From positions 20,752 to 84,751 of the forward strand of contig JAKBVZ010000020.1 in assembly GCA_021841005.1 (NCBI GenBank): 64,000 nt of DNA, given 5' to 3'. This stretch comes from Actinomycetes bacterium (GTDB lineage: Bacteria > Actinomycetota > Acidimicrobiia > Acidimicrobiales > JAMCPL01). The notes under the pieces were generated by a model. The model was given only the letters and a program-made list of their open reading frames with translations, made no database searches and was not told the origin of the DNA. This document shows positions 2,412 through 51,277 of the stretch, piece by piece (within the stretch, counting starts at the first letter, position 1; every line of letters starts with the position of its first letter). The position numbers and the translations under genes were made by a program.

Positions 2412-5400
2412 TCAGTTCCCTACTCCGGAAAGGACTCCCTCGTCCTTACCATGCGTACCACCTCCGGACGGCGGTGAGTCCTCCTCCGTCCCGAGATATG
2501 ACGCCATCACTTCAGGGTTCTCTAGGACATCGGCAGTGCCGCCTTCAGCTATCACCTCACCTATATGCATACAGACAAGGCGATCAGAGATGGAAGCAAC
2601 CAGCGGAACGTCGTGTTCTATGACCAGAAATGCTGCCCCCGTCTCTTCCCTCAATCCGAGTATCAGCTCACCCAAAGCCTCTGACTCACGCTGCGCTATG
2701 CCTGAAGTCGGCTCGTCCAGCAACAGTACCTTCGGCTCATGTGCGAGGAGACAGGTGAACTCGAGAATACGGCGGGTGCCGGTTGAAAGCTCGCTGACAA
2801 AGTTGCCGCGAAAACGCTCCAAGCCCATATCCCTGAGCAAGCGCAGGGCCTTGACATATATTTCCGCCTCCGACTCCTTGGCGGCAGCAAGGCCTAGAGT
2901 ACATGCAATCGGATCTTTCACCGCCACGTGCTGCTCGCAGGCTGTCGCTATAGCATCGAGCACCGTCATGGCCGGGAAAAGCCTTGCGTCCTGGAATACC
3001 CTGCCAAGCCCTCTCGAAGCTCTCTGCGAGGGAGCTAGCGCGGTGATGTCTTCACCCGACATGAAGACCCTCCCCTGATCAGGCTTGAGAAATCCCGAAC
3101 AAACATCGAAAAGTGTCGTCTTACCCGCACCGTTGGTACCGATAATACCAACTATCTCGCCAGGACCCACCTGCACGCTCACGTCATGCAACGCAGCAAC
3201 TCCTCCATACTGCTTCGACACGCCTACAACTTCAAATGCCGGCATAGTGCTACAGTCACTGCCAGCTTTCTTCTCACTGGCTGCAATCCCACCCGAACCG
3301 ACAGCGCTCGCAATCATGCCGCCCGAAGCCATACCGCCCATCGCAATACCGGGCTGCGCGGGTGCTGCGCTGGATGTTACAGGCTGTATGCGACTCTGTG
3401 TGGGTTCCGGCTCGCGCGATTCCGTTGAATACTCACTGCTCATTGAAGCCGAGGCGAAGCCTTGCGTAGCGGTCCTGCCTACCCTGGCTTTCATGGCCGC
3501 AGAAATGAAAACCGAACGTAACAACGTGGGCTGCTGGGAAAGATCCGGCGTCGGACCGCTGAAACGTATCCTCCCTCTTTCCATGAAAACGGCCCGATTG
3601 GATATCGCCGTAGCGACATTGATCGACTGCTCCACGACCACGATGGTCACACCACTCTTGGCGAGATCAGTGACAACTTTGAGCAGGTCATTGACAACCG
3701 TAGGAGCAAGTCCCAGAGACAGCTCATCAATCATCAACAACTTCGGTTTGCAGAGCAGGGCCTGGCTGAGCGCAAGCATCTGCTGCTCCCCTCCGGAAAG
3801 CAATTCCGCCTTGTTGCGCAATCTGTTACGCAACTGGGGAAAGAGCTGAAGTACCCGGTCAGTGGCAGCTTCGACAAACGCCAACGCATCATCACTTTTG
3901 GAATGCTTCACCATCCATGCACCCATAGTGAGGTTCTCCTCTACACTTAGAGATGGAAATATACCTCTTCCTCCCAGCACAGCCACAAGTCCTGACCTCA
4001 CGCGATCAACAGCACTCTTATCCGTGATCTCTCGGCCTACAAAGGAAATCTTGCCTTCTCCAGGCTGCATCAGTCCTGCCAGAGTCCGCAAGGTGGTCGT
4101 CTTGCCGGCTCCGTTGGTACCCAGAAGGGCAAGCACCTCTCCCTGGGCAATACTGAAATTGACGTTGTAGAGTACCTGCGAACTGCCTATTGAGAGATCG
4201 ACATCACTAGCAGCCATTATCGGTACCCGACCTGTTGGAGGTCCTGCATAGGGTGCGGCCGGATGTGACTTGCCAGCATCCTGCTGGGCATCCATGGTAA
4301 CCTCCAGATCTTCCAGGGCGCCAAGGCGCAAGGCGGCAGAGCGCGCCATACTCCTATGGGCAGCCCCATCCCATCCCTGGTTACCATCATGGTCAACCAA
4401 GATACCCGCAAGGATCGCCTCCCCATCTACGTCAACCTTGGAAGCAATTGGTACAGATGGGGCAGGCGTGCCGTGCAGATCTCCGGTAATGCCCCGGCGT
4501 TTCACAAACGTAGCGAGTAAGCGGTCCCTGGCCGCAAAATAGAGCCACCCGAGCCCTTCAGGAGCTATCATCAGGATGACAAGCAACCCAACTCCCTGAG
4601 CCAGGTACTGCCATGCACCAGGCAAATGCCCCATCAGCTCGAAGAACACTGCCCCAAGCAGCCCCCCCGAAAGAGATCCAAGACCGCCCACCACAACCAC
4701 GGCAAAAATCATAACTGACTCGTTGGGATCGAAACCTGCATACCCTATGCCCTGGTTCTGAAGGACCAGCAAGGAACCAGCCAACCCAGCTATGGCCCCT
4801 GAGATGGCGAATACCATCAGCTTAGCGCGGAAGGAGCTAATGCCGTAAGCCGATGCCGCTCTGGCATTATCCCTCATGGCCACTACAGCCCTACCGGCTC
4901 TAGAATTACGAAAATTGGCAGCTAGGTATATCCCCACAACCAATACAAGAGCCGACAGCACGTACATCCAACGTTGCGAGTTCAGGTCGAAACGACCAAA
5001 AAGCACTGGCCTGGGCACGTTGGCAGGATTGAATAGCGGGAAGAAAGTGGAGGACAGCAGCCAGGTGGATGTCATCACTGCGAATGCCAGTGTAATGACT
5101 GCAAGGTACAACCCCGGAATGCGCAATGCCGGTATACCCATCACAACTGCCGCCACTGCGCCTACCAACGCTGATATCAGCATGGCAAGCAGGAGTTCGA
5201 CATGTAAATGGACGAGAAGCGCTCCCGTGGTAGCTGCGCCCACTCCCGCAATAGCGTACTGCCCAAGGCTGATCTGACCGCCCCATCCTGACAACATCAC
5301 CACCGATACGGCCAGCAAGCCATATATCGCAACAAAGGTAAACGTAGTCAACCATGTGGCGTTGAACGTCAAGGGGAGCACCACAAGCACCACCGCACCC

Positions 5401-8753: not shown

Positions 8754-10448
8754 TTACCGGCGGTGCAGGACGCTCCGATCACCCTGACGTAGCCCGGTAA
8801 TTACGTCTCTGTACGTACTGGCCGAATCCAATCCCATTGCATCGGTTGGCAATATCTTCGTGCCCCTCTCCCTGTCGACACCATGTATGCCAAACCTCGG
8901 CTGGTAACTGCCCCATTCGTAATTATCCGCAAGAGTCCAGTGAAAGTAGGACCCTACGGGGATTCCCGCGTCGATGGCACTCACCATGGCGGCGAGGTTG
9001 TCCCGTATATAATCTGGCCGTTGGAGCAAATCAAGGCGCGGGTAAGACCTGCCATTATGCACCCTGTTGCACATACCATTTTCCACGATCCACAATGACT
9101 TACCGGGTAATACGTTCGCACGACAGTACGTGATCAATCCTTCGGGATTCTCGGGATCCTCCCATAGAGGCTTAGCAGGGAACCATACCCTTCCACCAGA
9201 AGTCCGGTGCCCAGGCATGGCTACATGATGAGTGGATACGGGGTCATAATAGTCTATCCCCACGAAGTCCAACGCCATCTCGTAGTCGCTTGCATACACT
9301 GCATCCACGGCCATCTGGCTGGTCGGCAACCTGGCCGGCAAGGTCTCCGCCCGGGGGTATCGAGCAGTGCCACCGCCGACCCTGCGTTTCAATCCTTTGG
9401 AAGCGCCTACCGGAGAGTATCTTGCCGCAAGATGCCTGACCACCTGCTCGGCTCTGCCTACAGGGGGTAACTCCGCATACCATTCCCGGCGGCGCTCACC
9501 TATCCAGGCATCCAGGTCATCACGGGATACCCCGTAGCTACGGGCTGCCATGACATCTATAAGCATCTTGTCGAACTCGTAAATACTGACACAGGTATTG
9601 TTGGTGGTGACATCAGCATCGGGCTGCAACTTGTGTATGACCTCGTAAGCAGCTATATGGGCAGCCATTAGATGATCCGCACAGGTTGCCGCCTCCGCAA
9701 TGGACCACTTACGGCCTGGAGGGAATATGCCGAATAGGTAAGACCCCATCGTTATCACATTCATCTCGTTGATGGTGACCCAGTTGGAAACGTGCTCTTT
9801 CAGACGGTTCACCGCTAGGTCGACCCATCCGGAAAATATGCCGGCAGCATCGGGCATCAGCCAGAAATCCTCTCCAAGCCAAGCTGGATGCGTAAAATGA
9901 TGAAGCGTCACCAGGGGCTCCAGTCCTCTCTCCCTGCACGCCTTTGCAATCGCCACGTATCGATCAAGTGCCGACGCATCCACTTCACCTTCAGCCGGCT
10001 GTACCCTAGCCCATTCGATACTAAACCGGAATGCATCACATCCCATGGCCTGGACGAGGTCGAGCATCTCTTCATAGCGGTTCCAGAAGTCGAGAGCGAT
10101 GCCGGATGGTTCTACCCGCCCAGCCATCTCCCACCACAGCCAGTTGTTCGCAGGCTCACCCGGCCCGTTGAAACCACCCTCCACCTGAAAACCTGCTGTG
10201 GCAACCCCGAAGTGGAACCCATCAGGCAGTATTTGCTGTGGCCCTGCCTGGGCACCGGACCCTACCTGCCGGGGTGACGAAGGAACCTGCCGGCTGGCGC
10301 GGCGCGACCCAGCCTGTCGACTAGGTCCGGCCTGTCCTCGTGACCCGGCCTGTCTACGGTTGCCAGCCCTCGAAGTGGCTGAACTGGCCCCTTGCTTGCC
10401 TGCATTTTCCCTAGTTTCGTCAGTCTCGCCTACCATCCCCAACAGCAT
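8754..10448 (-). CDS. Glycoside hydrolase family 1 (beta-glucosidase-like) with Arg/Gln-rich N-terminal extension
   Basis: GH1 hallmarks are present: FHFGVATAGFQVEGG, acid/base TINEMN, nucleophile WIVENG. The first 75 aa or so are low-complexity RQAGS-type repeats. Confidence 0.85.
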   Translation of the reverse strand: MLLGMVGETDETRENAGKQGASSATSRAGNRRQAGSRGQAGPSRQAGSRRASRQVPSSPRQVGSGAQAGPQQILPDGFHFGVATAGFQVEGGFNGPGEPANNWLWWEMAGRVEPSGIALDFWNRYEEMLDLVQAMGCDAFRFSIEWARVQPAEGEVDASALDRYVAIAKACRERGLEPLVTLHHFTHPAWLGEDFWLMPDAAGIFSGWVDLAVNRLKEHVSNWVTINEMNVITMGSYLFGIFPPGRKWSIAEAATCADHLMAAHIAAYEVIHKLQPDADVTTNNTCVSIYEFDKMLIDVMAARSYGVSRDDLDAWIGERRREWYAELPPVGRAEQVVRHLAARYSPVGASKGLKRRVGGGTARYPRAETLPARLPTSQMAVDAVYASDYEMALDFVGIDYYDPVSTHHVAMPGHRTSGGRVWFPAKPLWEDPENPEGLITYCRANVLPGKSLWIVENGMCNRVHNGRSYPRLDLLQRPDYIRDNLAAMVSAIDAGIPVGSYFHWTLADNYEWGSYQPRFGIHGVDRERGTKILPTDAMGLDSASTYRDVITGLRQGDRSVLHRR

Positions 10449-10572
10449 TGCACATTATCCACCCTGCGCGCATATCCAGGATAACCTCCCGCGACCTGCG
10501 CCAATCGAGAGCGTAATCCACCATCATCCACCATGCACGCAAATACAGAGCGAGCCTGCCTGGTATACGGCC

Positions 10573-10678
10573 CAAGCTACTATGCTTTCCCACTTCGCCT
10601 CACTGCGCCTGTGCTCCGAGCTGTAGGAGCGCCTGTTGCGCAAGCTACTATGCTTTCCCACTTCGCCTCACTGCGCCT
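10573..10678. repeat. 38-bp perfect direct repeat flanking a 30-bp hairpin-containing spacer (68-bp period)
   Basis: CAAGCTACTATGCTTTCCCACTTCGCCTCACTGCGCCT occurs at 10573-10610 and again at 10641-10678. The spacer contains GCTCC-N8-GGAGC. It lies in the divergent intergenic region between the GH1 gene and the 10725 ORF. Confidence 0.9.
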
Positions 10679-11760: not shown

Positions 11761-13290
11761 ATGGACAAGCTAGTAAAAGATACTGTGTTGGACGAGGTGG
11801 TAAAAGAGGATGCCGACGAAGCAGTAGTCGCATCCGCTCTCGAGCTGGCACGATCTGCGTTCGCTGAGTGGAAAACGGTTCCTATCTCCGAAAGGTCTCA
11901 GCTCCTGAGAGCCATCCGGTCCCAGTTGCTCAACCATATGGACGAGATGGTTGAAATCATGACCGAGGAAACCGGCAAGGTAATTACCGAAGCAATTGTA
12001 AGCGAGGTGGTTGTGGCCTGCGAAGTACTCAGTTACTACGCTTCCCGTGCTCAGGACATCCTGCGCACTCGGTCGGTATTCCCGGGGTTGTTGATCCATA
12101 AGCGCGCCTACATACGCTACGAGCCACTCGGGGTAATAGGCGTGATCAGCCCTTGGAACTACCCGCTGGTGCTTGCAATAGGTCCTGTAGCAACTGCTCT
12201 GGCAGCAGGCAATGCGGTCATACTCAAACCGTCCGAATACACACCAAAGACCGGTGTGCTCATCGCCAAGCTGATAGCTCGAGCAGGAGGTCCGGAAGGT
12301 TTGGTACAGGTGCTCACAGGGCATGGACCCACCGGTGAAGCCCTGGTACGATCGGGCGTGGACAAGATAGCATTTACCGGATCGGTAAGGAGCGGGAAGG
12401 CCGTGATGCGTGCAGCCGCAGATAATTTGACTCCGGTGCTTCTGGAGCTGGGAGGAAAAGATCCATTCATCGTGTGCAAGGACGCCGATCTCGATAGAGC
12501 AGCAAAGGCATGCGTCTGGGGATCTTTCACCAATTGCGGGCAAACATGCATGGCTACCGAACGCGTGTATGTGGTAAAAGAAGTCTACGACATATTCGTG
12601 GACAAGGTGTTGGCCCTGACCGCCCGGCTCCGTCAAGGCAATGGCCCAAGTGACGACATAGGCGCCGTTATCCACGAAGGTCAGCTCGGAATCATCGACA
12701 GCCATCTGGCCGACGCTCTGGACAAAGGAGCGAGAGTGGCCTACGGAGGCGAACATGTAGATGTAGCCGGCAGGCCTTCAATGCAGCCCACCGTTCTTCT
12801 GGACGTAGACCACTCGATGGCGGTAATGACAGAAGAGACATTCGGGCCATTGCTCCCGATCATGAAGGTCGAGGACGTGGACGAGGCATTGAAGCTGGCC
12901 AATGACAGCCGGTACGGGCTCAACGCATCTATCTTTGCCAAAGATCCCCAGACAATCGAGAGACTGGTGGCTGGTATCCGATCAGGCAACGTATGCGTGA
13001 ACGATGTAATGATATCTTATGGGATACCCGCACTACCCTTTGGCGGTATAGGTGATTCGGGATTTGGCAGGTCTCACGGACCTGAAGGGTTGAAAGAGAT
13101 GTCCCACCTGAAGTCGGTCGCCGAAGACCGCTTCGGACTCGGAAGGGAACCTTCCTGGATGCCCGTGCCTTCCTGGCTGGGCGGAGCGGTGAAGGCGAGC
13201 CTAAGGCTACTGTACCGGCCCGGGCGCGCAGGATCATACAACAGCGCCGGACAGCCACTGTACGTGAATGGCAACCGGGTGGAGTCTTGA
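11761..13290 (+). CDS. NAD(P)+-dependent aldehyde dehydrogenase
   Basis: ALDH motifs are present: ELGGKDP, catalytic-Cys region FTNCGQTCMATERVYV, EETFGPLLPI. Confidence 0.9.
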   Translation: MDKLVKDTVLDEVVKEDADEAVVASALELARSAFAEWKTVPISERSQLLRAIRSQLLNHMDEMVEIMTEETGKVITEAIVSEVVVACEVLSYYASRAQDILRTRSVFPGLLIHKRAYIRYEPLGVIGVISPWNYPLVLAIGPVATALAAGNAVILKPSEYTPKTGVLIAKLIARAGGPEGLVQVLTGHGPTGEALVRSGVDKIAFTGSVRSGKAVMRAAADNLTPVLLELGGKDPFIVCKDADLDRAAKACVWGSFTNCGQTCMATERVYVVKEVYDIFVDKVLALTARLRQGNGPSDDIGAVIHEGQLGIIDSHLADALDKGARVAYGGEHVDVAGRPSMQPTVLLDVDHSMAVMTEETFGPLLPIMKVEDVDEALKLANDSRYGLNASIFAKDPQTIERLVAGIRSGNVCVNDVMISYGIPALPFGGIGDSGFGRSHGPEGLKEMSHLKSVAEDRFGLGREPSWMPVPSWLGGAVKASLRLLYRPGRAGSYNSAGQPLYVNGNRVES

Positions 13291-20364: not shown

Positions 20365-21351
20365 TCAGCGCGCAGGAACAGAAACCGCCGCAACCATCTC
20401 AAACACTACAAATACCACCCAGGGCAGAGCCGCCATGACAAGATATCTGCCCCGGCCGTGACCGTTCCACAGCCCGAACAGCAGGTATCCAGCGGTAACC
20501 ACGGTAAGCACAGCGCTTACGACAGCCGCATCCGGAAGGTGCCAGGGAGTAAATACCACGGCCACAAAGCCCAGGATGCAGCTCTGAAATGCCGCAGATC
20601 CTGCTACGTTACCAAACGCCAACCCATCAGACCCAGATCGCACCCAGAGTACGCTATTCAGCGTTTCCGGAAACTCTGTCGCCAGCGGTATCACGACAAG
20701 TGCAAGCACAAGCGGATCGACATGGAGCCTGCCGGCCACAATTCCGATCTGAGCCACAAAAATATCCGAACCGGCAACAAGACAGGCAACTGACAGAAGG
20801 AGTTGCAGCGTAACCAGGCTCCAATGCGGTTTCTCGCCGCGATGGAACGTAACATGAAGCGGCTCGGGCATGCCCCCCGTTGAAGTACTCTTCTTCAGGG
20901 TAACGCCCACATATACTGCATACAACACGATTAGGCAGAACCCCCATATGACATGGATCACATGGTCAAATGGCATGATTACCAGGGACCCGGAGAAAGC
21001 ACCGAGAAATACCCCTAGGTCCAGACGACTCTGCGACTTCGGTACTGAGAGTGCCGGCTGGGAACGGCGGAGCATCACAGCCACTCCGGTAATCGCCGCT
21101 CCCAGGCCGAGAAGCATGAACGACGAGCCGAGTACGGCCCCTGTCGCTATCGCTGTGGAATGCGGTCGGGCCGCTGCGATTGCCACAATGGGTACAATGG
21201 TCTCCGGTAACGACGTGCCCAGCGCAGCCAGCAGGCTCCCGGTAGCACCGGTACCCAGCTCCAGCAGGAACCCTGCCCATTCCACTGCATTAGTGAAGAG
21301 TTCCGCACCAGCCACAATGGCAACGACGCTTACGATAAAAAGAAATACCAT
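20365..21351 (-). CDS. Ca2+/cation antiporter (CaCA family, Na+/Ca2+ exchanger-like)
   Basis: Two alpha-repeat signatures (GTSLPETIV and ATEFPETLNS) in a polytopic membrane protein. Confidence 0.8.
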   Translation of the reverse strand: MVFLFIVSVVAIVAGAELFTNAVEWAGFLLELGTGATGSLLAALGTSLPETIVPIVAIAAARPHSTAIATGAVLGSSFMLLGLGAAITGVAVMLRRSQPALSVPKSQSRLDLGVFLGAFSGSLVIMPFDHVIHVIWGFCLIVLYAVYVGVTLKKSTSTGGMPEPLHVTFHRGEKPHWSLVTLQLLLSVACLVAGSDIFVAQIGIVAGRLHVDPLVLALVVIPLATEFPETLNSVLWVRSGSDGLAFGNVAGSAAFQSCILGFVAVVFTPWHLPDAAVVSAVLTVVTAGYLLFGLWNGHGRGRYLVMAALPWVVFVVFEMVAAVSVPAR

Positions 21352-24915: not shown

Positions 24916-24942
24916 TTAGCACTCTAGTCTGTCGAGTGCTAA
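24916..24942. promoter_or_regulatory. CIRCE (HrcA operator) upstream of groEL
   Basis: Perfect consensus TTAGCACTC-N9-GAGTGCTAA, 100 nt upstream of the groEL start codon. Confidence 0.9.
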
Positions 24943-24949
24943 TAGCTAA

Positions 24950-25048
24950 TCACTTTCAGGATGATCGTGCAAGTACGCCTTCCGCTGCGGCCACTATGCC
25001 GCAGCCCGTGCATTACGGCTGTCACTTTCAGGATGATCGTGCAAGTAC
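24950..25048. repeat. MIRU-like element, locus A: 27-bp direct repeat flanking a 45-bp hairpin core (72-bp period)
   Basis: TCACTTTCAGGATGATCGTGCAAGTAC occurs at 24950-24976 and at 25022-25048. The core contains CTGCGGCCACTATGCCGCAG (7-bp stem, 6-nt loop). Confidence 0.9.
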
Positions 25049-25355
25049 ACTGTTCCGCGCCTCAATACTCAATATATGTGCACTGCGCAATGCATCGACC
25101 CGTTTTCATATCGACACGTTGCCACCACCACCAAATTGACATGAAATTGCAATGCAACGGTAAAGAGTTTGTCATATTTGTGGGTTATAGTATGTTTGGT
25201 AGCAAGTAGGCGCTCATCGGGCAACCTGAACGGCCGTTCGAATCTGAAAGGGCGTTCGTGCGTCTATTGCCAAGGATGCGATTCATATACGCAACCGCTA
25301 CAAGTGGCGTGCACTCTCCGGGAGGAGTGCCTTGACCGGACAGGAGAGTGAAACC

Positions 25356-28300
25356 ATGTCATTTGGAAAGAGAGGCCGCAGATTAAGGGTATTGTCGGGT
25401 ATTTTGCCGGGCGTGCTACCGGTAGCAATTGTGGCAGCCGTATTGCTGCCTCTCCTGGCCACAGCAGCAAATGCAGCTACAGTTCCCCAGGTGGTAAACG
25501 TTTCAGCAAGCGTGGCTGGTGGTTCTGGCTCAGCTGGAGGATGGGAGGTATCCAACGCCGCTCAACTGCCCGTCAGCGCTCTTACCGCAATATCCTGCCC
25601 TGCCACTGGTGATTGCGTGGCTGTGGGCCAGGGATTGTCCGGCAATACGATATCCGCCGTGACCTCGAATGGCGGGCTGGATTGGACAGTGCAGCAACTG
25701 CCTAGTGAGGTAGGCTCGCTTACCGGGATATCCTGCCCGACTACGCAAGCGTGCTTTGCTGTGGGGCAGGCATCCGAACCTTACAACAGCTTCACCCCAG
25801 GTGGAATCGTCGTATCCACCAGTAATGGTGGCTCCAGCTGGACTATCCAGGACATCCCCGGAGGAGTATCGTCGCTGACCGGCATCTCGTGTGCAGCTTC
25901 ATCCGATTGCTGGGTAGTGGGAAGCAACACTGCGTCTGTACCGGTAATGCTCAGTACCACAAACGGTGGTACCACTTGGACCGCTACTACACCCCCGGCT
26001 CCCGCCGGTAATCTTGATGTAATATCCTGTCCTGCTACAACTCACTGCGTAGCCACCGGTGCCAGTGGCGCAGTAGTAGTCACATCTGACGGGGGGAAGA
26101 CGTGGACAGTCCCACCCGTACCAAACGACACCACCAATCTTGATTCCGTATCATGCGCGGATGTCATGTTCTGCATGACCGTGAATATCCTTCCTTACAG
26201 CGGCAACTTCCGGGTCCGGAACGAGTCATCCACAGGTTTAGTAAGCTCATTTCAAACCTCCGCAGGCTCGGCTACAGCCCAGTCTGTATGGGTCACCACC
26301 GACGGAGGAACCACCTGGACAGTAGAGCAGGTGCCATCCAATATTATTCAACTGGCAGGTGTCTCATGCGCGCCTGCGTCCTCCAGCACCATCACAGGAA
26401 CAGCCTCTACCGTCTACACACCTTGTACTGCAATAGGTACGGAAGTCACCTCCGGCACACCCGATAATCCAATTACAGAAAACACGGTCGTACTCGCGTC
26501 CACTGACGGCGGATCGACCTGGAATACGGAGAACACTTCACCATCGACGGTTAATCTATTGGCGATATCGTGCAACGATATCACTGATTGCGTAGCCGTA
26601 GGTGCTGAGTCTCCCAACACCTCAACGACCTCACTGCCCACCCTGCTTGGAGGGTCCGAAACCAGTATAGCGTTGTCCACCACAGACGGAGGCAACGCAT
26701 GGAATCTTACGAACGTCCCTACTGCCAGCCAGGTACTCCTGAATGTGAACTGTGCCAGCACATCTGACTGCGTGGCGGTCGGCTCCACCACGGGAACCGG
26801 TGGAAGCACTGCAGCTCTCGCACTTTCCACCTCCAACGGGGGACAGACTTGGAGGCCGGAAAATCCACCTGCCAATGCGCCATTGCTGGATGTCTCCTGC
26901 CCGACTACGACTCAGTGTACAGCGGTGGGCGGTAATCCTATAGGGGGAATCTTCGGCCCCGGACCTGCAACCATTGTAAGCACTTCCAATGGAGGATCTT
27001 CGTGGACATCCGGGACTATACCGAACAATTTGTTGAGCATCCTCGGGGTCTCTTGCGCTTCTGTCAATTTCTGCGTATCCGTGGGTGCAGGGTTCCCTCC
27101 CAATGCCAAATCCGGGTATTCCTTGTCCAGCATAGTAGGTGTCATCCTTGTCAGCACCGATGGTGGCACCTCATGGAAAGAGCCGGCTTCATATCCAGGC
27201 GATGTGCTTTCCTCCGTGTCATGTCCTACAGTGTCCACGTGCTACGCATCAGGCAGTTCCATTCTCGGATCTGAGGGATTCAATGGGTTACCGGGAATGG
27301 TGGTGAAGACCATCAACGGTGGAAGCACGTGGTCGGTACTGCAGCCTGCCGGCAAGGACACCCCCGAACTGAACGGCATTGCATGTTCCTCTGCCACCCA
27401 GTGCGTCGTATCCGGAGGATCGTTACTGAACGGCCTTGAGGGCGGGAGCGGTGTAAGTGGCGGCTTGGGGTTCACCACCACAAACGGTGGAGCAAGCTGG
27501 AATAAATCCGCCTTCCCTTCAGGATCGCAGCCAGTCATGCGAATTTCCTGCGCAAATACTCAGGACTGCTGGGCAGCCAGTGGTGAATTATTCTCACCTT
27601 CTTCCGGAGGCATTCTGGCCAGCACCGATGGAGGAGTACAGTGGACCGAGCAGGCACTGCCCGTACAGCCTATGTCCATGTTCGGGGTATCGTGTCCCTC
27701 GACCACCGGCTGCTACGCTGCCGGATTGACGCCAAGCCAAAGCATTCTGCTCTCGACAACGACCGGAGGCTGGCTGGTGCCTGCTATTAGCTCTGTCAGC
27801 CCTAGCGACGGTTTCTCCTACGGTGGAACTACAGTGACCCTGTCAGGTACCGGATTCGTTCAAGGTCACACGGTGGTCAATTTCGGCACTGCGCCAAGTC
27901 CATCCGTAGATGTCCAGTCATCTTCTGAGCTGACCGCGGTGGCACCACCGGGAAGCGGAACTGTCAATGTCACGGTTCAAACTCCTGGCGGGACGACCAC
28001 CCCTACCAGTCATACCACCTTCAGTTACCAGCCTGCCGGCAGCTACACCTCTAGGGCAGCTTCCCCTTTCACGCCGGTCACTCCTTACCGTATAGCGGAC
28101 ACAAGACTGGGCTCCGGTGAGCCCTACGCGGGCCAGACCCTTGACACTGGCAGCGTGCTGAGCGTCAAGATCGGAGGTACCCAGCCTCAAGGGAGTGGCA
28201 ACGGTATACCCATCAGCGCCACAGCGGCAGTGATCAACGTAACCGCCGTCAACGCCGCTTCTCCAGGCTACCTGACCGTATGGCCAGCCGGGTATTCCAA

Positions 28301-29333
28301 GAGCACCTCCTCCGCGGTCAACTATTCCGGTACTGCGCCGGTCGCCAATCTGGTGACCGTTCCAATTGGACTGAACGGCCAGGTAAATGTATATGCCTCC
28401 AGCGGGCCGGTGGACGTGGTAATGGACGCGGAAGGCTGGTACGGCCCTGCAGGTACCAGCGGCTTTACCGCGATTAGTCCTTATCGTATAGCGGATACAA
28501 GGCCAGACTCCGGTGAGCCTTACGCGGGACAGACCCTTGCTCCCCATCGTGTGCTCACCATAAAGACCACTGGAACCGGCGCTACGCCCGCCAACGGCGG
28601 TGCCGGCGTTCCGATCACTGCCACTGCCGTAGACTTGAACGTAACCGCCGTCAACGCCGCTTCTCCAGGCTACCTGACCGTATGGCCAGCCGGCCAGGCA
28701 CGCCCGTTGGCATCCACAGTCAACTTCTCAGCACCTCCTATAATCTCGCCGGTGATACTGGATGGAAACCCGGCAACCTCATCGGGTCCCTTGCCTGTAT
28801 CGAACTCGGTTGCAGTAGCAGTGTCCTCCTCTGGTGAAATAAGCATTTATAACGGTTCGCAGGGAAGTATCAACGTAGTGGTGGACGTACAAGGCTGGTT
28901 CTCCACCCCAGACAGTACGAGCGCCTCTGGAAGTTCTCCTTTAAAGTTCACGCCAGTCAATCCCTACCGTATAGCGGACACGAGACCGGGTTCCGATGAG
29001 CCCTACGCGGGACAGACTCTTGCTCCCCATGGTGTGCTCACCATAAAAGCAGGTGGGACAGCCCCTCTGGGCAATGCCAACGGCGGTACCGGCATTCCGA
29101 TCACTGCCACCGCTGTAGTACTGAACGTTACCGTTGCCACCTCCGATGCATCAGGCTACCTGACCGTATGGCCGGCAGGCCAGGCACGCCCGTTGGCATC
29201 CAATACCAACTATGGAAAGGACACGATAATTGCAAGCCAAGTGGTCGTCCCTCTCGGATCAGGAGACAGCATCTCGATTTACAACTCAGCCGGCTACACC
29301 AACGTAGTGGTGGACGTGGAAGGCTGGTTCTGA
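25356..29333 (+). CDS. Large secreted protein: 14 BNR/Ycf48-like propeller units + IPT/TIG domain + three copies of an uncharacterised PYRIADTR domain
   Basis: Signal peptide MSFGKRGRRLRVLSGILPGVLPVAIVAAVLLPLLATAANA. There are 14 units, each pairing [IV]SC-x5-C-x-[AV]xG with S-x-[DN]-G-G-x-x-W. An IPT-like segment follows (SVSPSDGFSYGGTTVTLSGTGF). Then come three 128-161 aa repeats. I moved the start to the ATG at 25356, after GGAGAG. Confidence 0.8.
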   Translation: MSFGKRGRRLRVLSGILPGVLPVAIVAAVLLPLLATAANAATVPQVVNVSASVAGGSGSAGGWEVSNAAQLPVSALTAISCPATGDCVAVGQGLSGNTISAVTSNGGLDWTVQQLPSEVGSLTGISCPTTQACFAVGQASEPYNSFTPGGIVVSTSNGGSSWTIQDIPGGVSSLTGISCAASSDCWVVGSNTASVPVMLSTTNGGTTWTATTPPAPAGNLDVISCPATTHCVATGASGAVVVTSDGGKTWTVPPVPNDTTNLDSVSCADVMFCMTVNILPYSGNFRVRNESSTGLVSSFQTSAGSATAQSVWVTTDGGTTWTVEQVPSNIIQLAGVSCAPASSSTITGTASTVYTPCTAIGTEVTSGTPDNPITENTVVLASTDGGSTWNTENTSPSTVNLLAISCNDITDCVAVGAESPNTSTTSLPTLLGGSETSIALSTTDGGNAWNLTNVPTASQVLLNVNCASTSDCVAVGSTTGTGGSTAALALSTSNGGQTWRPENPPANAPLLDVSCPTTTQCTAVGGNPIGGIFGPGPATIVSTSNGGSSWTSGTIPNNLLSILGVSCASVNFCVSVGAGFPPNAKSGYSLSSIVGVILVSTDGGTSWKEPASYPGDVLSSVSCPTVSTCYASGSSILGSEGFNGLPGMVVKTINGGSTWSVLQPAGKDTPELNGIACSSATQCVVSGGSLLNGLEGGSGVSGGLGFTTTNGGASWNKSAFPSGSQPVMRISCANTQDCWAASGELFSPSSGGILASTDGGVQWTEQALPVQPMSMFGVSCPSTTGCYAAGLTPSQSILLSTTTGGWLVPAISSVSPSDGFSYGGTTVTLSGTGFVQGHTVVNFGTAPSPSVDVQSSSELTAVAPPGSGTVNVTVQTPGGTTTPTSHTTFSYQPAGSYTSRAASPFTPVTPYRIADTRLGSGEPYAGQTLDTGSVLSVKIGGTQPQGSGNGIPISATAAVINVTAVNAASPGYLTVWPAGYSKSTSSAVNYSGTAPVANLVTVPIGLNGQVNVYASSGPVDVVMDAEGWYGPAGTSGFTAISPYRIADTRPDSGEPYAGQTLAPHRVLTIKTTGTGATPANGGAGVPITATAVDLNVTAVNAASPGYLTVWPAGQARPLASTVNFSAPPIISPVILDGNPATSSGPLPVSNSVAVAVSSSGEISIYNGSQGSINVVVDVQGWFSTPDSTSASGSSPLKFTPVNPYRIADTRPGSDEPYAGQTLAPHGVLTIKAGGTAPLGNANGGTGIPITATAVVLNVTVATSDASGYLTVWPAGQARPLASNTNYGKDTIIASQVVVPLGSGDSISIYNSAGYTNVVVDVEGWF

Positions 29334-29335
29334 GA

Positions 29336-29611
29336 TCAGCCGCCGGCGACAGCAGGAACGACCGAGAGGGTCTGCCCATCCGTGACAGGTGTGTCCAGGC
29401 CATCGAGAAAACGGACATCCTCATCGGCTAGGAACACATTGACAAACCTCCGCAGACTGCCGGACTCGTCAAACAATCTCTCACCGATACCTGGGTACTT
29501 GGCATCAAGTTCCCTCAGCGTGTCTCCGACAGTCGCTCCACTGATACTGACCTCACCCAGTCCATCGGTGAGTTCCCGTAGCTGCGATGGTATCCTTACT
29601 GTAACGCTCAT
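29336..29611 (-). CDS. MoaD/ThiS-family sulfur-carrier protein (MetO/CysO-like), C-terminal GG
   Basis: 91-aa beta-grasp-like protein ending in AVAGG. It lies downstream of the threonine-synthase-like gene. Start is the ATG at 29611, preceded by GAGGAG (ORF track extends to 29665 through the repeat). Confidence 0.75.
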   Translation of the reverse strand: MSVTVRIPSQLRELTDGLGEVSISGATVGDTLRELDAKYPGIGERLFDESGSLRRFVNVFLADEDVRFLDGLDTPVTDGQTLSVVPAVAGG

Positions 29612-29764
29612 CTTCTGTGCTCCTCTTCTAGGTCTGCTGCGGCCACTATGCCGCAACTCGTGCACCGTGTGTTGCTCATCTTCTGTGCTCCTCTTCTAGG
29701 TCTGCTGCGGCCACTATGCCGCAACTCGTGCACCGTGTGTCGCTCATCTTCTGTGCTCCTCTTC
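29606..29764. repeat. MIRU-like element, locus D: 2.3 tandem copies of a 68-bp unit between metM-like and metO-like genes
   Basis: The 23-bp junction GCTCATCTTCTGTGCTCCTCTTC is present at 29606, 29674 and 29742. It is the complement of SD plus ATGAGC. The copies are separated by two 45-bp cores containing CTGCGGCCACTATGCCGCAA. Minus-strand mini-ORFs lie at 29676..29747 and 29608..29679. Confidence 0.95.
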
Positions 29765-29806
29765 CCGTGAGTCATACTACCAGTGCCTGTGTGTGGAGAC
29801 CATCCG

Positions 29807-31051
29807 TCATACACCGGAAATGCGGCCGGCCATTGCCTCGGCAAAGGCATCCATCCTGGCTGCGATGGTAACTGTTGGGTGGACAGAGTCGGTTAGAGCC
29901 TCGACGGTCTTGAGACCGTGACCGGTCACGAAGATGACCACCTTCTCCTCCGGCTTGATCACCCCTTCCGACACCAGCTTGGCGAGTGAAGCCACGGTCA
30001 CTCCACCTGCCGTTTCAGCAAATATACCTTCCGTTCTCGCCAGTAGCTTGATACCTTCGATTATCTCGCCGTCCGTCACGCTGGCAAACGAGCCTCCCGT
30101 GGACCGGACCGTATCGAGAGCGTACCAGCCATCAGCAGGGTTCCCTATGGCGAGCGACTTAGCGATTGTATCGGGTTTTACAGGTCTTATGACATCCTTG
30201 CCTGCCCGGAACGCATCGGCTACCGGAGAACATCCAAGCGCCTGTGCGCCTGATATCCGAACCGCTGGTTCCTCGGCAAGCAGCCCCACGGTATACAGCT
30301 CCTTGAACCCCTTTGCGATCTTCGTCAGCTGGCTGCCGGAAGCCACAGGAACCACCACGTGATCGGGAGTGGTCCATCCCATCTGCTCCGCCACTTCGAA
30401 CGCCAGCGTCTTGGAACCTTCCGCGTAGTAGGGACGCAGGTTCACATTCACAAAGGCCCAATCGTCGTGCTCACTGGTCAACTCCGCACACAACCTGTTC
30501 ACGTCATCATAAGTCCCTTCCACCGCAACCAGATGTCCGCCATATACCGCAGTCGTAATCACCTTTGCGACCTCCAGGTCATGCGGTATGAACACCAGTG
30601 ACTCCACCCCTCCTCGGGCCGCGTGCGCCGCTACGGCATTGGCGAGATTCCCTGTAGATGCGCAAGCCACCACTTTGAAACCCAGCTCACGAGCTTTGGC
30701 GAGTGAGACAGATACCACCCTGTCCTTAAAAGAACCGGTAGGGTTGGCCGTATCGTTCTTTACCCAGAGCGATTGCAATCCCAACTCGGAGCCGAGCCTA
30801 CCTGCCCGCACAAGAGGAGTGAAACCGGTTCCCATGGACAGATCGTCATTTCCCAGCACCGGAAGGAGTAGTCCGTATCTCCAGATACTACGCGGGCCTG
30901 CCTCTATGGACTCCCGGCTGATCCCCTCCTTAATACAATCGTAGTCGTAGTCCACTTCGAGCGGCCCGAAACAAAAGTCGCATACATGCAGCGCCTCCGC
31001 GGGATAGAGCCGTCCGCACTCCCTGCACTTCAGACCATTTACGCAATTCAC
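29807..31051 (-). CDS. Threonine-synthase-family PLP enzyme with N-terminal Cys4 zinc ribbon (MetM-like candidate homocysteine synthase)
   Basis: PLP lysine motif TGSFKDR. N-terminal CRECG...CDFC. Start is GTG, 5 nt after GAGGAGG. A SAM riboswitch lies upstream and a sulfur-carrier gene downstream. Confidence 0.8.
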   Translation of the reverse strand: MNCVNGLKCRECGRLYPAEALHVCDFCFGPLEVDYDYDCIKEGISRESIEAGPRSIWRYGLLLPVLGNDDLSMGTGFTPLVRAGRLGSELGLQSLWVKNDTANPTGSFKDRVVSVSLAKARELGFKVVACASTGNLANAVAAHAARGGVESLVFIPHDLEVAKVITTAVYGGHLVAVEGTYDDVNRLCAELTSEHDDWAFVNVNLRPYYAEGSKTLAFEVAEQMGWTTPDHVVVPVASGSQLTKIAKGFKELYTVGLLAEEPAVRISGAQALGCSPVADAFRAGKDVIRPVKPDTIAKSLAIGNPADGWYALDTVRSTGGSFASVTDGEIIEGIKLLARTEGIFAETAGGVTVASLAKLVSEGVIKPEEKVVIFVTGHGLKTVEALTDSVHPTVTIAARMDAFAEAMAGRISGV

Positions 31052-31166
31052 AGCAACCTCCTCATCATCGGTCGGGCATTGGCACCTGGTCTACCTTCAT
31101 AAGACATCACAGGTTGCCGCGGCTTCACAGGGCCCGTCCCTCAGCCGCTCTGGATGATGACAGCTG
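31052..31166 (-). promoter_or_regulatory. SAM riboswitch of the SAM-I clan (S-box-like core, apparently no internal P4)
   Basis: The minus-strand RNA reads UCAUCAUCCAGAGCGGCUGAGGGACGGGCCCUGUGAAGCCGCGGCAACC...GGUGCCAAUGCCCGACCGAUGAUGAGGAGG. It matches the S-box conserved blocks (AGAG-GGC-GAGGGA-GGCCC-UGAA-CC-GCAACC...GGUGC-AA). The P1 3-prime strand runs into the Shine-Dalgarno sequence. Confidence 0.8.
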
Positions 31167-46005: not shown

Positions 46006-46244
46006 TAGAGGCTCAGCGGATAGGCATCTCGGGCTCGTCGTCCCCCTGGCTTCGCATCGCTGTGAAGTCGTGTATTGTCCATGCACGGAAGCTAGCCCTT
46101 CTGCCTCCACCTTGCACTACTCGCCCGGATGAACGCCTCCCTGATCTAAGCCGACAATCTACCAAGTCGCTACGGCCACTATGCCGTAGCCCGTGCGCTG
46201 GACCACGCCTCCCTGATCCAAGCTGCCTATCCGCTGAGCCTCTA
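46006..46244. repeat. 239-bp unit bounded by perfect 21-bp inverted repeats, containing MIRU-like locus B (19-bp direct repeat, 72-bp period)
   Basis: TAGAGGCTCAGCGGATAGGCA at 46006-46026 is the exact reverse complement of 46224-46244. Inside the unit, ACGCCTCCCTGATC[T/C]AAGC at 46133 and 46205 flanks a core with CTACGGCCACTATGCCGTAG. Confidence 0.85.
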
Positions 46245-50366: not shown

Positions 50367-51182
50367 TCAATGATAAGACTCCTCGTCTGAAGGATACCTG
50401 CCCGCTCTGACATCCTCTGACCATGACGATACCGCTCTAATGGCATCGTCAGCCAGAGTTGCATACCTTCGCACAAACTTGGGTACCCTTTCGCTCAGAC
50501 CCAACAGATCGTGAAATACCAGTACCTGGCCATCACAGTCGGCACCCGCTCCGATCCCGATGGTCGGCACCGGAACGCTCGCAGTGACCTCGGCAGCAAC
50601 TGCCCGAGGCACCGCCTCCAGCACGATGGCAAAGCATCCCACTTCGGCCAAGCCAATCGCATCCTGAACCAGCATCTCGACAGCCAACGGATCTTTGGCC
50701 TGCACTCTATGGCCTCCCAGGCGATGTATGGACTGTGGCGTCAATCCGATATGTCCCATGACAGGAATCTCGGCGGCAACCAAGGCTTCAATCGCCGACC
50801 GCCTGATCCGCCCTCCCTCCAATTTGACCGCTCCAGCGCCGGCTCTGATGATAGCAGCGGCATTTCGTATCGTATCGGCATCACCAAGGTGATACGAGAG
50901 CCAGGGCATGTCCCCGACAACCAAGGCATTAGGCTTGACGCTACTGACAGCAGCCACATGGACAACCATATGCTCCACGGTCATATTCAAGGTGTCGCTC
51001 TGTCCATGCACCGTCATGGCGGCGCTGTCGCCGACAAGAATAATGTCGACACCTCCCGCATCAGCTATCCGAGCTCCAGGAGCGTCGTATGCCGTCAGCA
51101 CGACTATAGGGGCACTGCTTTTTGACCTCTTACGTACCTTGATGTCCGGAACGGTAACTTGTGGAGCCATAGCTATACCCAT
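50367..51182 (-). CDS. panB: 3-methyl-2-oxobutanoate hydroxymethyltransferase
   Basis: VLTAYDAPGARIADAGGVDIILVGDSAAMTVHG and KLEGG motifs. Confidence 0.93.
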   Translation of the reverse strand: MGIAMAPQVTVPDIKVRKRSKSSAPIVVLTAYDAPGARIADAGGVDIILVGDSAAMTVHGQSDTLNMTVEHMVVHVAAVSSVKPNALVVGDMPWLSYHLGDADTIRNAAAIIRAGAGAVKLEGGRIRRSAIEALVAAEIPVMGHIGLTPQSIHRLGGHRVQAKDPLAVEMLVQDAIGLAEVGCFAIVLEAVPRAVAAEVTASVPVPTIGIGAGADCDGQVLVFHDLLGLSERVPKFVRRYATLADDAIRAVSSWSEDVRAGRYPSDEESYH

Positions 51183-51277
51183 ATTAGCCTAATCAGGTGG
51201 TTCCACGGGCTGCGGCATAGTGGCCGCAGCGGATCTGGAGATAGCTATACCCATATTAGCCTAATCAGGTGGTTCCA
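51169..51277. repeat. MIRU-like element, locus C: 37-bp direct repeat flanking a 35-bp hairpin core (72-bp period) at the DUF5318/panB junction
   Basis: ATAGCTATACCCATATTAGCCTAATCAGGTGGTTCCA occurs at 51169-51205 and at 51241-51277. The core contains CTGCGGCATAGTGGCCGCAG. A minus-strand mini-ORF lies at 51189..51254. Confidence 0.95.

Follow-up and report, generated by a model that had tools for sequence, protein, structure and literature searches.

The window, i.e., the whole stretch of 64,000 nucleotides analysed here (positions 20,752 to 84,751 of contig JAKBVZ010000020.1 from the Acidimicrobiales assembly GCA_021841005.1), contains a two-gene operon on its minus strand with a 68-bp tandem array in the spacer between the two genes. 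The upstream gene (29807..31051, minus strand) encodes a metM-like pyridoxal phosphate (PLP) enzyme of the threonine-synthase family (ThrC-like) with an N-terminal Cys4 motif (NCBIfam TIGR00260, E=1e-87; Pfam PALP on the same product in other contigs). The downstream gene (29336..29611, minus strand) encodes a metO-like sulfur-carrier protein of 91 amino acids with a ThiS/MoaD fold and a C-terminal GG (NCBIfam SAMP1/MoaD; Pfam ThiS). The operon is headed by an S-adenosylmethionine (SAM) riboswitch (31062..31160, minus strand; Rfam RF00162, 72.2 bits versus a gathering score of 44.4). Judged from the sequence, the combination of a ThrC-like PLP enzyme, a GG-ending carrier and a SAM riboswitch fits an operon for the thiocarboxylate MetM/MetO route to homocysteine (10.1101/2024.10.14.618325), and the labels metM and metO used in a preliminary description of this DNA agree with the domain matches, the riboswitch and the described pathway.

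The array spans positions 29605-29764 with a period of 68, 2.4 copies and 97% matches (Tandem Repeats Finder), in agreement with the 68-bp unit of the preliminary description. The 23-mer GAAGAGGAGCACAGAAGATGAGC, comprising the metO Shine-Dalgarno (SD) sequence and the ATG, occurs exactly three times at intervals of 68 nt, always on the minus strand (29606-29628, 29674-29696 and 29742-29764), and none is expected in shuffled sequences. Read on the minus strand, the interval 29600-29764 shows the block order F-I-F-I-F, with an F block of 29 nt (GAAGAGGAGCACAGAAGATGAGCnnnACA) and an I block of 39 nt (CGGTGCACGAGTTGCGGCATAGTGGCCGCAGCAGACCTA). Each 68-bp unit consists of a 24-29-nt copy of the metO initiation region and a 39-44-nt insert, which holds an 8-bp GC-rich stem with the loop ATAGTG. 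The first duplicated copy (29736..29764, minus strand) comprises the SD GGAG, the ATG and the first codons; it is an exact 23-nt match to a sequence that is single-copy in relatives and begins mini-ORF 1 (ORF, open reading frame). It is followed by insert 1 (29697..29735, minus strand), a fragment of a hairpin core reading CGGTGCACGAG-TTGCGGC-ATAGTG-GCCGCAG-CAGACCTA (core matches; covariance-model match of 65.5 bits), with a predicted stem-loop at 29704-29725 on the same strand. The second duplicated copy (29668..29696, minus strand), again an exact 23-nt match, begins mini-ORF 2, and insert 2 (29629..29667, minus strand; core and covariance-model matches) has the same sequence as insert 1 and its stem-loop at 29636-29657 (minus strand). 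The third copy (29600..29628, minus strand) is the native SD, ATG and first codons of metO and equals the sole copy at the relatives' empty site. Both full units are identical apart from the single T/C difference noted before (T at 29673, C at 29741). Between metM and metO neither a terminator nor a T tract was found; the hairpin is therefore expected to be co-transcribed with the two genes. A role as intrinsic terminator was considered and dropped owing to the missing T tract.

Each duplicated block supplies GGAG 8 nt from the ATG, followed by AGC, and the period of 68 nt places the mini-ORF frame on the TGA of the next ATGA. Mini-ORF 1 in the ORF list (MSDTRCTSCGIVAAADLEEEHRR and stop; 29676..29747, minus strand) has 23 amino acids and 72 nt with the stop, and its TGA overlaps the ATG of mini-ORF 2. 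Mini-ORF 2 (MSNTRCTSCGIVAAADLEEEHRR and stop; 29608..29679, minus strand) also measures 72 nt with its stop, is the 3' part of a longer open frame (29608..29850) and overlaps with its TGA the metO ATG (29611-29609). Both minus-strand stops are the last three bases of an ATGA, so that the two ATGA-coupled 23-codon ORFs with the metO SD reported earlier are indeed both present, the last one overlapping the metO start. The first duplicated SD follows the metM stop (TGA, 29807-29809) at a distance of 42 nt. In two other assemblies (L001 and L005), gene calls at 2837-3004, corresponding to about 29608-29775 on the minus strand of the window, give a 55-amino-acid ORF across both units with a 4-nt overlap to metO; this ORF over the repeats is probably spurious.

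A family of hairpin cores flanked by direct repeats

The hairpin of the metO units belongs to a family with a conserved core of about 32 nt (TGCAYGRG-YTRCGGC-ATAGTG-GCCGYAG-CRGA), forming an 8-bp GC-rich hairpin with a 6-nt loop. The 64-kb window holds five core matches, all intergenic, versus 0.04 expected, and the covariance-model matches of the family score 57-65 bits. Outside metO the core is found at 24981-25012 (minus strand), 46166-46197 (minus strand) and 51204-51242 (plus strand), and every core copy in the window is flanked by a direct repeat of local DNA. Upstream of groEL (24950..25048, minus strand) a 27-nt exact direct repeat surrounds a 45-nt core insert with a period of 72, directly upstream of the CIRCE operator. 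At the DUF5318/panB junction (51169..51277, plus strand) a perfect 37-nt direct repeat, made up of the final 11 codons of DUF5318 with its stop and the AT of the panB ATG, surrounds a 35-nt core insert, again with a period of 72. An older member lies in the convergent PBP-like/dnaB spacer (46133..46244, minus strand), with a decayed 27-nt repeat (four mismatches), a period of 72 and a stem that has undergone a compensatory change. A further copy, with a period of 71 and the loop ATGGTG, is located just past the right end of the window, upstream of a parA-like gene (L025:477), and two decayed copies with periods of 71 and 72 are present in an unrelated Actinomycetota metagenome-assembled genome (MAG; L012 and L014). 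In this region one core copy is found about every 12 kb. When the window was scanned for exact direct repeats (13 nt or longer, offsets 20-300), these fell at offsets 68 and 72 with few exceptions, namely three repeats of 13-15 nt (offsets 29, 54 and 288) and a 136-nt echo that stems from the metO array, and all repeats at offsets 68 and 72 but one surround the hairpin core.

The sum of duplication and insert is nearly the same at all copies, while its partition differs. At metO the duplication measures 24 nt exact (29 with two mismatches) and the insert 44 (39), giving 68 nt. The groEL copy of the window has 27 nt exact plus 45 (72 nt in total) and its counterpart in the sister species 35 nt with two mismatches plus 38 (73 nt). 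For panB the values are 37 nt, perfect, plus 35 (72 nt), and for L025:477 22 nt exact (about 36 with small indels) plus 49 (about 35), resulting in 71 nt. The dnaB-spacer copy and L014 both show 27 nt with mismatches and an insert of about 45, i.e., 72 nt. The outer ends of the inserts differ between copies, and the inserts look like fragments of similar length in different registers of a common source. Short similarities are found at the junctions (CAGA at groEL, CA at panB, GA(A)G at metO), and similarity extends past the perfect repeat with 2-4-nt indels. A strict 37+35 geometry for all copies was rejected, as the right arm at metO (CAGACCTA) is homologous to the insert arm at panB (CGGATCTG) and hence belongs to the insert. 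The variable insert arms matched no other sequence among those compared, giving no sign of remnants of donor flanks.

The preliminary description had derived the 68-bp period as 72 nt minus the 4-nt overlap and had seen in it the 72-nt unit of the other loci. This sets an ORF length against a DNA period, since the 72 nt elsewhere are a DNA increment and not the length of an ORF, and the match is regarded as coincidental. It may matter that, with a period of 72 nt, the duplicated ATG would share the metO frame, while with 68 nt the frame stops right at the start of metO.

Across the family 98% of the stem cells are paired, with one compensatory change, and four of five unilateral stem changes are G-T/G-U wobbles on the ATAGTG strand. 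Because the wobbles fall on this strand, they give a weak hint that the ATAGTG single strand may be the active form. The predicted DNA folding energy of the core hairpin is -7.5 to -11 kcal/mol, and the stem folds in either orientation. Orientation and site vary: the core lies on the minus strand and sense to metO, on the plus strand and antisense to panB, and at groEL upstream of the CIRCE operator, where it is probably outside the transcript. The opposite orientation of the metO and panB cores had been recognised correctly in the preliminary description.

Two structures without the hairpin core have a related geometry. In L025 at 8869-8979, between gidB and parA about 1 kb past the right end of the window, a perfect 37-nt repeat with a parS site (TGTTTCACGTGAAAC) encloses 37 unrelated nt with a period of 74, a geometry as in the panB copy. 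Likewise, L030 at 13063-13173, from a core-free relative (GCA_054636795.1), contains a perfect 37-nt repeat with 37 nt between its copies and a period of 74. Neither of these 37-nt inserts has another copy in the sequences compared or a viral match.

Empty sites, copy number and mini-ORF evolution

For metO, relatives with a MetM identity of 94% (L019, L020) and 83% (L024) have spacers of 86 and 59 nt, the latter being 195 - 2x68. All three read ...GGAAAAGGAGCACAGAAG|ATGAGCGTTACAG with one SD/ATG block and no core. At groEL, the upstream block is present once in L019, next to the CIRCE operator. For panB, the stop of DUF5318 and the panB ATG lie 2 nt apart in L028, with the 37-nt block once. 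Because relatives show such single-copy empty sites, the F blocks at metO are target-site duplications of the metO initiation region. The sister species, with a nucleotide identity of 94.0% in metM, 95.7% in metO and 93.5% in groEL, has both the metO and the groEL insertion and carries a single 68-nt unit at metO in four assemblies; the metO insertion and its length of 68 nt therefore predate the split of the two species. In the groEL stretch just 5' of the repeat, the copies are more alike within than between species, which points to concerted evolution and to an original groEL duplication of at least 35 nt.

Unit number at metO differs between assemblies with identical MetO. Two units are found in the window and in L001, L002 and L005, and one unit in L003, L004, L006, L007 and L008, as a G or an A variant. 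Deleting 68 nt from the two-unit allele in one or the other register would yield either of the single-unit variants. L006 represents a distinct haplotype with 15 differences in 280 nt upstream and has one unit. With no unit in relatives, one in the sister species and in five assemblies, and two in four assemblies including the window, the recent copy-number-variable amplification proposed before has found support, and the locus behaves as a variable number tandem repeat (VNTR). Such a change in unit number is expected from unequal exchange or slippage between the 24-29-nt direct repeats, and the same process could excise the element precisely. The worry that the array might be an assembly artefact was not upheld, as the two-unit form is identical in the window and in three independent assemblies. 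On the basis of the sister-species contigs and the L006 haplotype, a real polymorphism of one versus two units is the better reading compared to repeat collapse. In two short metO contigs from short-read data (L009, L010) the break falls inside the hairpin core, the kind of interruption that a repeat with several copies is expected to cause in assemblies. The strains and relatives provide a natural series of zero, one and two units before the same gene, which could be used to test the effect of duplicated initiation regions and of termination-reinitiation.

Next to the unit number, the mini-ORFs were compared with the sister species. In the insert 8 of 44 nt differ (18%), whereas the SD/ATG repeat is unchanged over its 24 nt and the flanking genes diverge by about 4-7%. 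The mini-ORF of the sister species is still open, has 23 codons and is ATGA-coupled; with nine substitutions, an open ATGA-coupled frame in both species is expected by chance in most cases. Its peptide (MSDTRCTSCGIVAAADLEEEHRR in the window versus MSGTRCTNCGIAAVADLKEEHRR) shows five nonsynonymous and two synonymous codon changes, i.e., 5 of 23 residues are replaced, which argues that the peptide evolves as if neutral and would have no function of its own. A functional peptide finds no support in this pattern. As the duplicated SD/ATG is authentic, the mini-ORFs are probably translated, and re-initiation after their translation is plausible because the frame ends at the next ATGA. In the minimum-free-energy fold the metO SDs are predicted to be mostly unpaired, and masking of the SD by structure was therefore dropped as an explanation. 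With the native initiation region intact and predicted to be mostly unpaired, metO would be independent of the upstream ORFs. At panB the duplicated ATG opens an unrelated 21-codon ORF with its stop 6 nt before the next ATG.

Several observations argue that the mini-ORFs would be by-products that keep the insertion harmless, as proposed for MIRUs (short for mycobacterial interspersed repetitive units): relatives have the same metO initiation region without any unit, the native copy is intact and predicted to be mostly unpaired, the peptide is not conserved, and the core lies antisense at panB and upstream of an operator at groEL. For annotation, this means that the mini-ORFs should be treated neither as genes nor as a designed regulatory relay.

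Origin of the array and rival explanations

We consider the 68-bp array to be the scar of a small non-autonomous hairpin element of this Acidimicrobiales-like lineage, with the mini-ORFs as its by-product, and assign this reading a probability of roughly 70%. A hairpin piece of 39-44 nt entered the metM-metO spacer with duplication of the adjacent 24-29 nt of target on both sides, a step documented by the empty sites, adding 68 nt to an ancestral spacer of 59 nt before the split from the sister species (about 94% nucleotide identity). Unequal recombination or slippage would then have produced the second unit in part of the window species, where the polymorphism itself is observed, and units could be removed in the same manner. 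Since the duplication spans the whole initiation region, metO would keep an untouched SD/ATG, and the upstream copies would start 23-codon ORFs that run through the hairpin and end at the TGA in the next ATGA. Ribosomes translating the mini-ORFs might reach metO by termination-reinitiation, so that the insertion would be close to neutral for metO expression. Concerning the movement of the element, we favour as a best guess, with modest confidence, a route in which an enzyme integrates the element at widely staggered target nicks, some 2.5-3.5 helical turns from each other, with subsequent fill-in; the long duplications hint at an integration mechanism with an unusually wide stagger. The duplication leaves both neighbours with complete signals, the distal copy providing the end of the upstream gene and the proximal copy the start of the downstream gene. 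An insertion can therefore be tolerated even at a 2-nt gene junction (DUF5318/panB) or at a start codon (metO), and both genes are left intact.

Some points weigh against this interpretation. The mini-ORF is open, of the same length and ATGA-coupled in two species, which would agree with a weak selection on translation across the unit, and both the translation of the mini-ORFs and the neutrality for metO expression are inferred. Moreover, variable insert ends and duplications of about 24-37 nt at a constant total of 68-73 nt are not predicted by simple cut-and-fill transposition. No mobilising enzyme was found in the window: a Pfam search of 30 window proteins for a mobilising gene returned housekeeping functions only and no transposase, integrase, Cas protein or reverse transcriptase. 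Some of the one-unit contigs stem from short-read assemblers that are able to collapse tandem repeats. Finally, the family analysis has a small sample of seven or eight members.

Two rival explanations assign the unit a role for the host. The first is a purpose-built relay or a set of leader peptides, in line with the relay interpretation of the preliminary description: the mini-ORFs would pass ribosomes from metM to metO or tune metO, with the unit number as a rheostat. Each unit indeed has an authentic metO SD, the 8-nt spacing to the ATG and the ATGA overlap; the 23-codon ORF and its overlap are retained in the sister species, the unit number differs between strains, and short coupled ORFs can bring ribosomes to a downstream gene (PMC12548453). 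However, the SD/ATG copies are target-site duplications made by an interspersed element, relatives translate metO from the same SD/ATG without any unit, the native initiation region is intact and predicted to be mostly unpaired, and the peptide evolves as if neutral. The chain is also uncoupled from metM, whose stop lies 42 nt upstream of the first SD. Furthermore, an ORF-linked role of the core does not fit the other loci, as the core is antisense at panB with an unrelated 21-codon ORF, while the copies upstream of groEL and in the dnaB spacer lie in DNA that is not translated. We consider the relay unlikely. Slightly less likely still is a host-useful RNA hairpin that would fix the MetM:MetO ratio by serving for processing of the transcript or as a stability barrier. 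Repetitive extragenic palindromic (REP) elements within operons of E. coli act as such RNA processing and stability sites, and the stem is kept by wobble and compensatory changes, folds in either orientation and, with no terminator present, is co-transcribed. This reading is opposed by the absence of the hairpin from relatives with the same operon, the variation in copy number among near-identical strains and the groEL copy upstream of the operator, probably outside the transcript.

The remaining rivals concern how the DNA arose. An ectopic CRISPR-type integration would involve a Cas1-Cas2-like integrase applying rulers of about 37 bp for the repeat and about 35 bp for the spacer at non-CRISPR sites, with the hairpin region as favoured source of fragments. 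To our knowledge, among known enzymes it is mainly the CRISPR integrases that make duplications in this size range. The perfect 37-nt duplication and 35-nt insert at panB, the 35 + 38 nt at groEL of the sister species and, allowing for decayed ends, the about 36 + 35 nt at L025:477 are in line with such an activity, as are the near-constant insert length in variable register on a common source and the two core-less structures of exactly 37 + 37 nt (parS in L025 and L030:13063). On the other hand, the metO copy measures 24-29 + 39-44 nt instead of 37 + 35, the same 'spacer' is found at nearly every site, and the two non-core inserts match no viral contig. Furthermore, the sequences examined, which include about 75 kb of this genome, showed no cas gene and no CRISPR array, none of the 185,579 species-representative genomes scanned has the core as a CRISPR repeat, and the Rfam CRISPR-DR match is at chance level (E=7). 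We regard this as improbable, if the least so among these rivals. Replication template switching (copy-choice or of the type of microhomology-mediated break-induced replication), in which a nascent strand copies a hairpin donor and returns upstream, would yield insert and duplication without a dedicated enzyme. It would account for the variable insert end-points and the short junction similarities at groEL, panB and metO, and a stable core hairpin could plausibly stall replication. A density of about one copy per 12 kb and the recurrent increment of 68-73 nt are, however, hard to obtain from sporadic errors, and the closest core-free relative, with about 94% MetM identity and similar genes, has no core in about 55 kb; we rate template switching as doubtful as the relay. 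Very improbable is an assembly artefact, i.e., tandem-repeat expansion or collapse or a chimeric join. Contigs that end inside the core (L009, L010) and one-unit contigs from k-mer assemblers, which could be collapsed, would speak for it. The two-unit sequence is, however, identical in the window and three assemblies (two NCBI MAGs and one from ENA), the one-unit form is found in a 134-kb JGI contig, in the divergent haplotype and in four sister-species assemblies, and the structure with flanking duplications recurs at independent loci.

A broader and speculative extension, which we think has perhaps one chance in four, is that the hairpin family and the core-less 37+37-nt structures record a process of bacterial DNA insertion not yet described, either by a ruler-type integrase (Cas1-like or other) or coupled to replication, with a nearly constant quantum of about 72 nt. 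Of this quantum, about 35 nt would come as a fragment from a source with the hairpin, the register varying, and about 37 nt (3.5 helical turns) from duplication of the target. If true, insertions into tight gene junctions would be self-repairing, since the duplication can take in a complete ribosome-binding site, the end of a gene or a promoter element, with VNTRs and coupled mini-ORFs as a side effect.

Known repeat families and neighbouring features

A search of the 185,579 genomes with a 22-nt core pattern returned no true extra copies besides two decayed ones in one Actinomycetota MAG. Two Pseudomonas contigs with an exact 22-nt match have a different context and no similarity past the 22 nt and were taken as chance. 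Two metagenome scans and one viral scan for the core returned nothing, and blastn against phage and plasmid collections gave chance-level matches only. Since Rfam matches were also at chance level only (gathering and E-value thresholds), the core does not correspond to a known RNA.

The metO element can be filed under the small interspersed hairpin repeats, as a MIRU-like element with unusually long target duplications. The likeness to MIRUs includes the occurrence in Actinomycetota, units of 40-100 bp in operon spacers as single or tandem copies and copy-number variation between strains (PMC12548453, PMC3184786), as well as empty and filled sites between relatives and short ORFs with a 4-nt overlap to the downstream start. 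MIRUs have been described as landing on start codons, with an ORF in -4 coupling that minimises the impact on expression (PMC12548453). The 68-bp unit lies between the co-transcribed genes metM and metO with zero, one or two units across relatives and strains, and at metO an ATGA overlap is found at both junctions, which is not family-wide, as the panB core is antisense and the ORF there stops 6 nt short. The unit ORF of MIRUs also overlaps the stop codon of the gene before it, whereas here the metM stop precedes the first duplicated SD by 42 nt. In MIRUs the full length of the unit is conserved from locus to locus, the ORF ends come with the element, the orientation follows that of the flanking genes and the direct repeats are only 4 nt long (PMC3184786). 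By contrast, only about 32 nt are common between the loci described here and the rest is a locus-specific duplication of 24-37 nt, which sets the family apart from MIRUs by description. Moreover, the SD/ATG/ATGA is copied from the start of the host gene (24-29 nt) and not carried on the element, the orientation is not fixed, and copies are also present in promoter and convergent spacers.

With REPs and REPINs the family shares a GC-rich imperfect palindrome of about 30-35 nt, the extragenic location in either orientation and also within operons, and lineage-specific bursts. Arrays of bacterial interspersed mosaic elements (BIMEs) vary in copy number. REPs lack flanking target duplications and REPINs are inverted doublets mobilised by REP-associated tyrosine transposases (RAYTs), whereas the elements here are single hairpins with local duplications of 24-37 nt at every copy. 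No inverted doublets of the core were found and no RAYT was seen in about 75 kb of this genome. Miniature inverted-repeat transposable elements (MITEs) make fixed duplications of 2-10 bp and have terminal inverted repeats matching a parent insertion sequence (IS). They are generally shorter than 200 bp (some about 400 bp) and have terminal inverted repeats and flanking target duplications (PMC3184786). Like MITEs such as Correia, RUP and ERIC, the family is non-autonomous, intergenic and hairpin-forming, with filled and empty sites and target duplications showing insertion (PMC3184786); in contrast to them, about 32 nt are conserved, the insert ends vary and the duplications measure 24-37 nt. 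With its very small size, a duplication of 24-37 nt and a gain of about 72 nt per event, the hairpin element does not fit the usual REP and MITE categories.

An insert of about 35 nt next to a duplicated target of about 37 nt with a period of about 72 also resembles CRISPR integration and off-target 'neo-CRISPR' formation by Cas1-Cas2, and the two-unit metO array is formally like a repeat-spacer-repeat-spacer-repeat structure. Here, however, the 'spacer' is the same at each site, the 'repeat' is local and the duplication length is variable. The actinobacterial and mollicute IS1634/IS1549 group of the IS4 superfamily is reported to produce long variable direct repeats of 8-514 bp on insertion, with no accepted mechanism (PMC2266710). 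It is a precedent for long variable duplications, but consists of full-length IS encoding large transposases; an IS1634-like transposase gene or matching terminal repeats were not found at the hairpin copies or in the window.

The window adjoins the chromosomal origin region, with dnaA, dnaN, rnpA, yidC, gidB and parAB at or just past its right end. Upstream of groEL lies a canonical CIRCE operator (TTAGCACTC-N9-GAGTGCTAA; window 24916-24942), and the groEL element with its 27-nt duplication, directly upstream of it, may duplicate the -35 region (TTGCAC). Between metO and groEL, a gene on the plus strand (25332-29333) encodes a secreted-looking protein of 1333 amino acids with weak BNR/Sortilin-like matches, a TIG domain and internal repeats of about 400-490 nt; it is present in the window and in the sister species and absent from the relative with 94% MetM identity, in which metO is directly followed by groEL. 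Near the dnaB-spacer copy, a 27-nt inverted repeat (46006-46032 / 46218-46244) with 93% complementarity and arms 185 nt apart overlaps with one arm the duplicated flank of that copy. Located between convergent genes, it may belong to a different repeat family or form a long structure resembling a terminator.

A second structure with a period of 68 nt is located at 10570-10678 (plus strand), where a 41-nt direct repeat with one mismatch has its copies 27 nt apart. The covariance model gives no match to its hairpin, and divergence from the nearest relative is too high for an empty site to be defined there. The repeat holds a weak hairpin, AAGC-TACTAT-GCTT, whose decamer GCATAGTRGC resembles the loop region of the core. 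The structure lies 46 nt upstream of a gene of the tocopherol-cyclase family (PF14249), and a GTAGGAG SD-like motif is present in both of its units.

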